A stretch of DNA of 25,270 bases from a virus. Its lineage: Duplodnaviria; Heunggongvirae; Uroviricota; Caudoviricetes. The notes under the pieces are model-generated. The model searched no databases. It worked only from the letters and a program-made list of their open reading frames with translations, and had not been told where the DNA came from. The position numbers were made by a program, and so were the translations under genes. Position 1 is the first letter of the stretch; every line of letters begins with the position of its first letter. The stretch is from the IMG/VR virus record IMGVR_UViG_2713897042_000013, positions 1 through 25,270 of that record; one strand, given 5' to 3'. Below are positions 6,460 through 6,843 of this stretch, piece after piece.

Positions 6460-6843
6460 TCAGAATGGGATGGAATCGTCGTATTCAGGATTATTTTGAT
6501 GATTGCTACTTTGCTGCTGTTGGCTGTTTCCTGAAGTTGCAAATCCAATCTTTGCATTCAGTAATTCAAGAGTGATTGATTGACCATTTTGCCCCTGATA
6601 AACATCAACCCTGATGTTTTCTCCGGTAATTTCTACAATGCCTCCTTCAACCAGAACGCTACGATAGTAATCCGCTTGCGCTCCCGGCTTGGCAAATACA
6701 ACGGCGCTGTAGTTTGTCCATTCTTTCTTTTTTGTCTGGCGATCGTAATACTGAACGCCAGCACGGATGTTGAATCCGATATTTTCCCCGGCCTGAAACT
6801 CTCTTGCGGGTTTGTTTAGTCTTACTGTAATCGAATGTGCCAT
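6460..6843 (-). CDS. SSB-like protein with acidic SSB-type C-terminal tail (…EYDDSIPF), 127 aa
   Basis: Start ATG at 6843 overlaps the erf stop (TAATG). C-terminal DDSIPF resembles the E. coli SSB tip DDDIPF; glutamine-rich linker before the tail. Confidence 0.7.
   Translation of the reverse strand: MAHSITVRLNKPAREFQAGENIGFNIRAGVQYYDRQTKKKEWTNYSAVVFAKPGAQADYYRSVLVEGGIVEITGENIRVDVYQGQNGQSITLELLNAKIGFATSGNSQQQQSSNHQNNPEYDDSIPF

Follow-up and report, generated by a model that had tools for sequence, protein, structure and literature searches.

Does a small phage protein that ends like SSB, the host's protein for binding single-stranded DNA, coat DNA for the phage, or does it compete for the host proteins that read the SSB tail? 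The question is raised by a gene at positions 6460-6843 (minus strand) of a 25,270-nt stretch of a Caudoviricetes genome (IMG/VR record IMGVR_UViG_2713897042_000013, positions 1 to 25,270), which we call the window. Both roles had been offered by an earlier, sequence-only reading of this DNA. Here we establish the structure of the gene, the predicted fold and three-part architecture of its product, the conservation of the acidic tip and the linkage to annealase genes. The protein belongs to the family of HK97 gp40, or SSB-1b, and is probably a phage SSB, a remote relative of bacterial SSB that coats recombination single-stranded DNA (ssDNA) and offers a host-type tip to the annealase and to host partners. 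SSB-1b was already recognized as SSB-like, and a host-type tip on a phage SSB had already been characterized for HK620. Our additions are modest: conservation of the tip across the family, a frameshift in the reference copy of HK97 gp40, and a C-terminal module shared among annealases.

Gene, predicted fold and acidic tip

Translation of the minus strand yields the expected 127-aa protein ending in DDSIPF, MAHSITVRLNKPAREFQAGENIGFNIRAGVQYYDRQTKKKEWTNYSAVVFAKPGAQADYYRSVLVEGGIVEITGENIRVDVYQGQNGQSITLELLNAKIGFATSGNSQQQQSSNHQNNPEYDDSIPF (MAHSITVRLNK...NNPEYDDSIPF*). In the mechanical list of open reading frames (ORFs), the ssb frame runs up to a GTG at 6933 and would encode 157 aa. Because the homologues all start with MAHSIT or close to it, without exception, the ATG at 6841-6843 is taken as the true start. 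The gene does lie directly downstream of erf, as first described, and the two overlap by one base in a TAATG junction that is predicted to couple translation of ssb to that of erf. A TAATG-type erf/ssb junction is likewise annotated in mEp043 and PhiR12_4. The ssb stop is followed after 23 nt by the abc2 start at 6436, which places the gene beside an annealase gene in an erf-ssb-abc2 recombination module. The features of this region are as follows.

6460-6843, minus strand: ssb gene of the HK97 gp40 / 'SSB-1b' family, 127 aa, TGA stop at 6460-6462 (translation; PHROG 44)
6532-6843, minus strand: predicted OB-fold core, residues 1-104, with eight predicted strands and one helix (55-63)
6487-6531, minus strand: predicted disordered linker rich in Q, S and N, residues 105-119 (predicted local distance difference test score, pLDDT, below 50 for residues 108-121)
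6463-6486, minus strand: acidic C-terminal tip EYDDSIPF, residues 120-127 (translation; alignment to the E. coli SSB tip)
6841-6845, minus strand: TAATG junction, with the erf TAA at 6843-6845 and the ssb ATG at 6841-6843 (read from the sequence)
6854-6860, minus strand: candidate Shine-Dalgarno sequence GAAGGGG for ssb
6843-7448, minus strand: erf, single-strand annealing protein of 201 aa, directly upstream of ssb (PF04404, E = 3.5e-44; PHROG 155, E = 8e-57)
6852-7013, minus strand: three-helix module at the Erf C-terminus, residues 146-199, about 55 aa, a candidate partner-docking domain
6140-6436, minus strand: abc2, anti-RecBCD gene and third member of the recombination module (PF11043, E = 4e-61; PHROG 656)

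Structure prediction was the first check that the sequence-only reading had proposed for an SSB, and it returns an OB fold with bacterial SSBs among the best matches. The AlphaFold2 model, built on an alignment of 52 family members (mean pLDDT 84), has a confident OB beta-barrel over residues 1-104 with a disordered tail after it, and the structures it matches best are those of bacterial SSBs and PriB. In its predicted structure, the protein carries the SSB-type OB fold of the bacterial SSB family. Its sequence also hits PHROG 44 ('single strand DNA binding protein') with E = 1.9e-28. No part of the family is better conserved than the OB core, which contains many invariant aromatic and basic residues. 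The four ssDNA-stacking residues of E. coli SSB are W40, W54, F60 and W88, and an alignment of the family profile to E. coli SSB with hhalign (E = 4.5e-4, probability only 33%) sets Y32, W42, F50 and Y81 opposite them. Three of these four positions are invariant or nearly so in SSB-1b.

Other sequence comparisons give fainter signals. PF00436 is matched below threshold by 11 of the 52 relatives (best E = 0.0038), and a Pfam scan of all 52 finds nothing above threshold. The commonest Pfam matches among the relatives, TFIIA and CCDC53, were rejected because they reflect the low complexity of the Q-rich linker. The PDB, searched by sequence and by profile, yields only insignificant SSB matches (E = 0.06 for 7d8j, and 0.45). 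When the family profile was searched with HMMER against 1.84 billion representative proteins, just 215 clusters were recovered, and the profile therefore does not extend to canonical SSBs. The combination of an OB fold, an extra long alpha-1 helix and gp2.5-type structural matches that marks T7 gp2.5-like proteins was not found in this protein, nor does PADLOC report a defence-system match for it.

The imitation of the host tip extends past the six residues noticed at first. The last eight, EYDDSIPF, compare with DFDDDIPF in E. coli SSB at five identical and two conservative positions, and both proteins have an aromatic residue seventh from the end. BLASTP against E. coli SSB (reference sequence checked, 100% identity) aligns only the C-terminal region, NNP--EYDDSIPF with NEPPMDFDDDIPF. 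From the fetched loci, 635 distinct ORFs of 100 aa or more were surveyed. Of these, 35 end in the motif [DE][DE]x[ILVMP]P[FYW], and every one is an SSB-1b homologue; none of the other 600 has it. The likeness to the host tip is not chance. Within the family, ...[DE]x[I/P]PF stands at the extreme C-terminus of 148 of the 230 full-length members and one or two residues short of it in 9 more, behind a Q/P-rich linker that is unalignable and varies from 5 to 90 residues (median 22). Because the motif is kept constant behind a freely varying linker, the tip appears to be under selection.

A conserved core, a hypervariable Q/P-rich linker and a conserved [DE]x[I/P]PF end are together the hallmark of SSBs. 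The window protein has a disordered linker and then an acidic tip ending in IPF, and its sequence and model suggest a very remote SSB relative with the full three-part architecture. It shares the OB fold, the disordered linker and the acidic tip with E. coli SSB, although the similarity between them is below all curated thresholds. The remark that its body is shorter than host SSB holds for the whole protein (127 versus 178 aa), whereas the two OB cores are close in size (about 104 versus about 112 aa). What shortens the protein is its linker of only about 15 aa, compared with about 56 aa in E. coli SSB.

The SSB-1b family, the HK97 copy and annealase neighbours

By sequence likeness the protein falls in the HK97 gp40 / SSB-1b / PHROG 44 family, with 94% identity to HK97 gp40 over 127 aa (E = 1e-81). 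Copies that are 98-100% identical occur in mEp043, HK544, HK633, PhiR12_4 and Shiga toxin (Stx)-converting phages, and identity reaches 100% for the copy of the Stx2a phage Stx2_EH2086 and for copies on IMG/VR contigs. Homologues of gp40 are also present in HK022 and HK106, and gp40 and its homologues occupy the same slot between erf and abc2. The erf-ssb segment (window 6400-7500, coverage of at least 80%) was found in 556 out of the 5,426 complete genomes of E. coli searched, where the Prokaryotic Genome Annotation Pipeline (PGAP) labels the ssb gene 'hypothetical protein'. A scan of viral contigs gave 80 loci, nearly identical and of E. coli type, that added nothing to the diversity of the set, and a scan of genome contigs gave only 11. 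The diverse relatives were drawn from a tblastn search against GenBank phages. Judged by these sequences, SSB-1b seems to be a small, discrete family found mainly in gammaproteobacterial phages.

In the RefSeq record of HK022 (NC_002166.1, our locus L102), a 406-nt unannotated gap separates Erf (locus positions 1081-1686) from abc2 (2093-2386). The gp40/SSB-1b homologue is located in this gap, where the IMG/VR counterpart (L033) has a 99% match.

A study of lambdoid recombination modules (Genome Res 2025, Casjens/Smith and co-workers; PMC12315714) names HK97 gp40 'SSB-1b' on the strength of an AlphaFold 3 fold similar to that of bacterial SSB, bases the name on fold alone and describes the protein as experimentally unstudied. 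In the same study, the SSB of Sf6/ES18 ('SSB-1') is likewise encoded inside lambdoid recombination modules. A text search of the main article turned up nothing on the gp40 tip, and one likely reason is that the HK97 reference copy is frameshifted. Reference gene 40 has one extra A, reading GATTCCAATCCC where the window copy reads GATTCC-ATCCC. With this insertion the reading frame changes seven codons from the end, and ...DDSIPF* becomes ...DDSNPILI*, destroying the tip that is intact in the window copy.

L101:787-830 (AF069529.1 about 23786-23830), compared with window 6455-6500: HK97 frameshift, one-A insertion

The extra A is either a mutation of the laboratory strain or a sequencing error.

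The gene is linked to annealase genes in its relatives as well. An ORF similar to Erf was detected nearby with phmmer in 90 of the 94 fetched loci, and abc2 is present too in 84 of these 90. Nearly all of the diverse relatives also have an annealase neighbour, which may be Erf, Rad52/22, Sak4/AAA_24 or RecT. The neighbours of the SSB-1b gene include the following, with metagenome-assembled genome abbreviated as MAG.

Vibrio phages K75 and 1.054.O: Erf
Gammaproteobacterial MAG: Erf and a Gp157 protein
Coxiellaceae MAG: Erf and a DnaQ-like exonuclease
Two Yersinia prophages: Rad52/22, whose end coincides exactly with the SSB-1b start codon
Leminorella prophage: Sak4/AAA_24
Aeromonas phage: RecT and Gp157
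One distant Vibrio phage relative: no annealase near the SSB-1b gene

Since these annealases belong to four unrelated core families, SSB-1b appears to be tied to single-strand annealing generally and not to Erf particularly. Many relatives do not have abc2 nearby, for example those at the Vibrio, Yersinia and Aeromonas loci. In two distant relatives, the annealase gene (RecT or Erf) is separated from that for SSB-1b by a Siphovirus Gp157-family gene (PF05565; L094:3075-3569 and L096:1977-2459), which suggests that annealase, Gp157 and SSB form a recurring three-gene unit.

Proposed function and its alternatives

The best functional analogue is the SSB of HK620 (HkaK, 'SSB-2'), which likewise lies between an annealase gene and abc2, has a host-like tip and is experimentally characterized. 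It differs from SSB-1b in its sequence family (set apart by description) and in its partner, which is Sak4 and not Erf. Sak4 binds ssDNA coated with HK620 SSB only if the NDYPPF tip is present, and deletion of these six residues abolishes most of the stimulation of the annealase and of recombineering (PMC5928155). In lambda, Red-beta uses its C-terminal domain to contact the final ~9 residues of host SSB; this interaction is needed in vivo (PMC11611040) and is now used for matching RecT proteins to new hosts (PMC13490951).

By analogy with these systems, ssb would be expressed from the early-left (pL) operon with its translation coupled to that of erf. The OB core of SSB-1b would then coat ssDNA arising from phage recombination and replication, the source of which is probably RecBCD redirected by the neighbouring Abc2. 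The short flexible linker may display EYDDSIPF as a copy of the host SSB docking peptide. The tip could recruit proteins that read this peptide, of which the phage's own annealase, Erf, is the first candidate. Erf would thereby be loaded onto SSB-coated ssDNA instead of being blocked by SSB, and the tip may also attract host SSB-interacting proteins. For SSB-1b itself, we infer ssDNA binding, the oligomeric state and the partners of the tip. The proposal that this is a phage SSB working with Erf, one of the two made by the sequence-only reading, gains support from the OB fold, the three-part architecture, the coupling to erf and the adjacency to annealase genes.

Several observations weigh against this assignment. 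The window protein has no Pfam match even at E values up to 10, its TIGR00621 (ssb) score is 18.9 bits compared with a cut-off of 53.95, and it therefore does not rise above the curated PF00436/TIGR00621 cut-offs. The hhalign probability for the alignment to E. coli SSB is just 33%. About one-third of the family does not have a terminal tip, and the HK97 prototype has lost its tip to the frameshift, yet the phage is viable in the laboratory, which shows that laboratory growth can do without the tip. The HK97 frameshift, together with relatives that end in ILF, ITF or Q-rich sequence, could be taken to mean that the tail is a coincidental or vestigial likeness without function. We regard this as very improbable, because the tip keeps its place at the exact C-terminus in most relatives although the linker preceding it cannot be aligned, and because the motif is confined to this family among the ORFs surveyed.

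The other proposal of the sequence-only reading was competition for host SSB partners. The copied tip would titrate or redirect ExoI, RecQ, RecJ, RecO and PriA with the OB domain as a mere scaffold, and its effect might be to shield phage DNA ends or to disable host repair. The near copy of the host tip in the last eight residues is what such a decoy would need, its linker is very short (about 15 aa) unlike that of host SSB, and the gene adjoins abc2, which encodes another host-takeover protein that targets RecBCD. However, a scaffold needs neither the best-conserved segment of the protein nor aromatic and basic residues that tentatively align with the DNA-binding positions of SSB, and a pure decoy is disfavoured because the OB core has both. 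The gene also follows four annealase families, with or without abc2, and the HK620 tip of like kind acts positively on a phage annealase (PMC5928155). Competition is consequently unlikely as the main role, since the OB core is too conserved for a tail scaffold; a decoy effect is possible as a side effect of SSB-1b.

An OB-fold accessory protein must also be considered, either a PriB-like adaptor for replication restart or a replacement for P22 Abc1 that acts with Abc2 on RecBCD. PriB is a small OB-fold relative of SSB, similar in size to the window protein, and its structures rank with the best matches in the fold search. It is also a chromosomal primosome protein found outside phage recombination modules, and to our knowledge it has neither a disordered linker nor an acidic IPF tip. 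The SSB-1b family has both, unlike PriB, and PriB-like membership was rejected on this linker-and-tip architecture. The position between the annealase gene and abc2 corresponds to the abc1 slot in P22 (gene map, PMC5928155). However, many SSB-1b relatives occur without abc2 nearby, and in HK620 the protein that occupies this slot has been demonstrated to be an SSB (PMC5928155). We consider either accessory role to be improbable, and the phage SSB assignment is preferred.

Operon surroundings and the Erf C-terminal module

The remaining landmarks of the region are consistent with a lambdoid layout.

1419-2489: lambda-type integrase
8785-9129: N-like antiterminator
9247-9275, minus strand: pL-like promoter TTGACG-17-GATACT (consensus scan only)

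The consensus scan found no promoter-like sites between the N-like antiterminator and ssb. On this arrangement erf, ssb and abc2 appear to be early-left operon genes of a lambdoid prophage, and the pL-like promoter probably drives an N...erf-ssb-abc2...int operon. The small gene just upstream of erf (7541-7738, minus strand) matches phrog_2123 'recombinase' and is the counterpart of mEp043 gp41 and Sf6 gene 29, in a slot that is held by arf in P22.

Two other gene pairs were observed in the window. The first (9501-11005, minus strand) is a cassette encoding proteins of 309 and 192 aa between the N region and a cI-like repressor gene, in the location of rexAB in lambda. Its proteins match phrog_18731 and phrog_9194, and for the smaller one (192 aa) PADLOC also reports a candidate defence model, PDC-M63A (E = 2e-10); this is possibly a prophage-encoded defence cassette. 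The second pair consists of minus-strand genes at 20324-21511, between the lysis and HNH/terminase genes and antiparallel to the late operon. A weak likeness to head-maturation/ClpP-type proteases (phrog_94, E = 2e-25) is seen for one, the second gene falls in phrog_5483, and PADLOC reports no match for either. The pair looks like a moron.

Residues 146-199 of Erf fall outside the Pfam Erf domain and are predicted by AlphaFold2 to form three helices (pLDDT 91.5). This module shares 52% identity with the C-terminal end of the Leminorella Sak4/AAA_24 protein and 35% with that of the Yersinia Rad52/22 protein, both of which are encoded directly upstream of SSB-1b genes. It also resembles the end of a 162-aa Raoultella protein. 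With tblastn, it was found at the ends of RecT and RecE-RecT proteins in phiV10, SPN1S and TL-2011b-like phages, and of an Erwinia Sak4-like protein. The module is thus common to four annealase core types (Erf, Sak4/AAA_24, Rad52/22, and RecT or RecE-RecT). Copies outside the window are located as follows.

L092:1368-1556: copy of the module
L090:3813-3998: copy of the module
L087:3810-3998: copy of the module
L099:2486-2683: copy of the module
L100:2483-2665: copy of the module

In phiV10 and the Erwinia phage, there is no annotated SSB within 2.5 kb of the gene carrying the module, which can thus occur apart from any phage SSB annotated nearby. A comparison to lambda Red-beta with hhalign shows no similarity (probability 0.3%), a profile search finds nothing among PDB chains and a homologue search returns short fragments only. 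A fold search does not help to place it, since a small helical bundle resembles thousands of structures. We found no published role for the Erf C-terminal domain.

A mobile module on four annealase cores fits docking to a common partner, and we speculate that the SSB tip is the obvious candidate. The tip and the Erf module of about 55 aa might form a portable plug-and-socket pair in which the module reads a ...D[DE]xIPF tip of either host or phage. This idea is tentative, and we think it has less than an even chance of being correct. In enterobacterial phages the module occurs on Erf, Rad52, Sak4 and RecT cores, and in a Vibrio phage it occurs at least on Erf. If such a pair exists, it would give the Erf C-terminal domain a function and would explain the free swapping of annealases and SSBs among lambdoid recombination modules.

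In biological terms the finding is an expected one, in that the window protein would be one more phage SSB imitating the host tip. It calls for a correction of annotation: the gene name should be phage SSB, and the reference copy of HK97 needs a flag for its frameshifted tip. An Erf-SSB pair with a host-type tip is carried by about one in ten complete E. coli genomes and is still annotated there as a 'hypothetical protein'. Annealases work only where they are able to engage an SSB tail, which is the basis for moving recombineering between bacteria (PMC11611040, PMC13490951), and erf-ssb provides a ready-made two-gene unit for studying how annealases of the Erf family are loaded.
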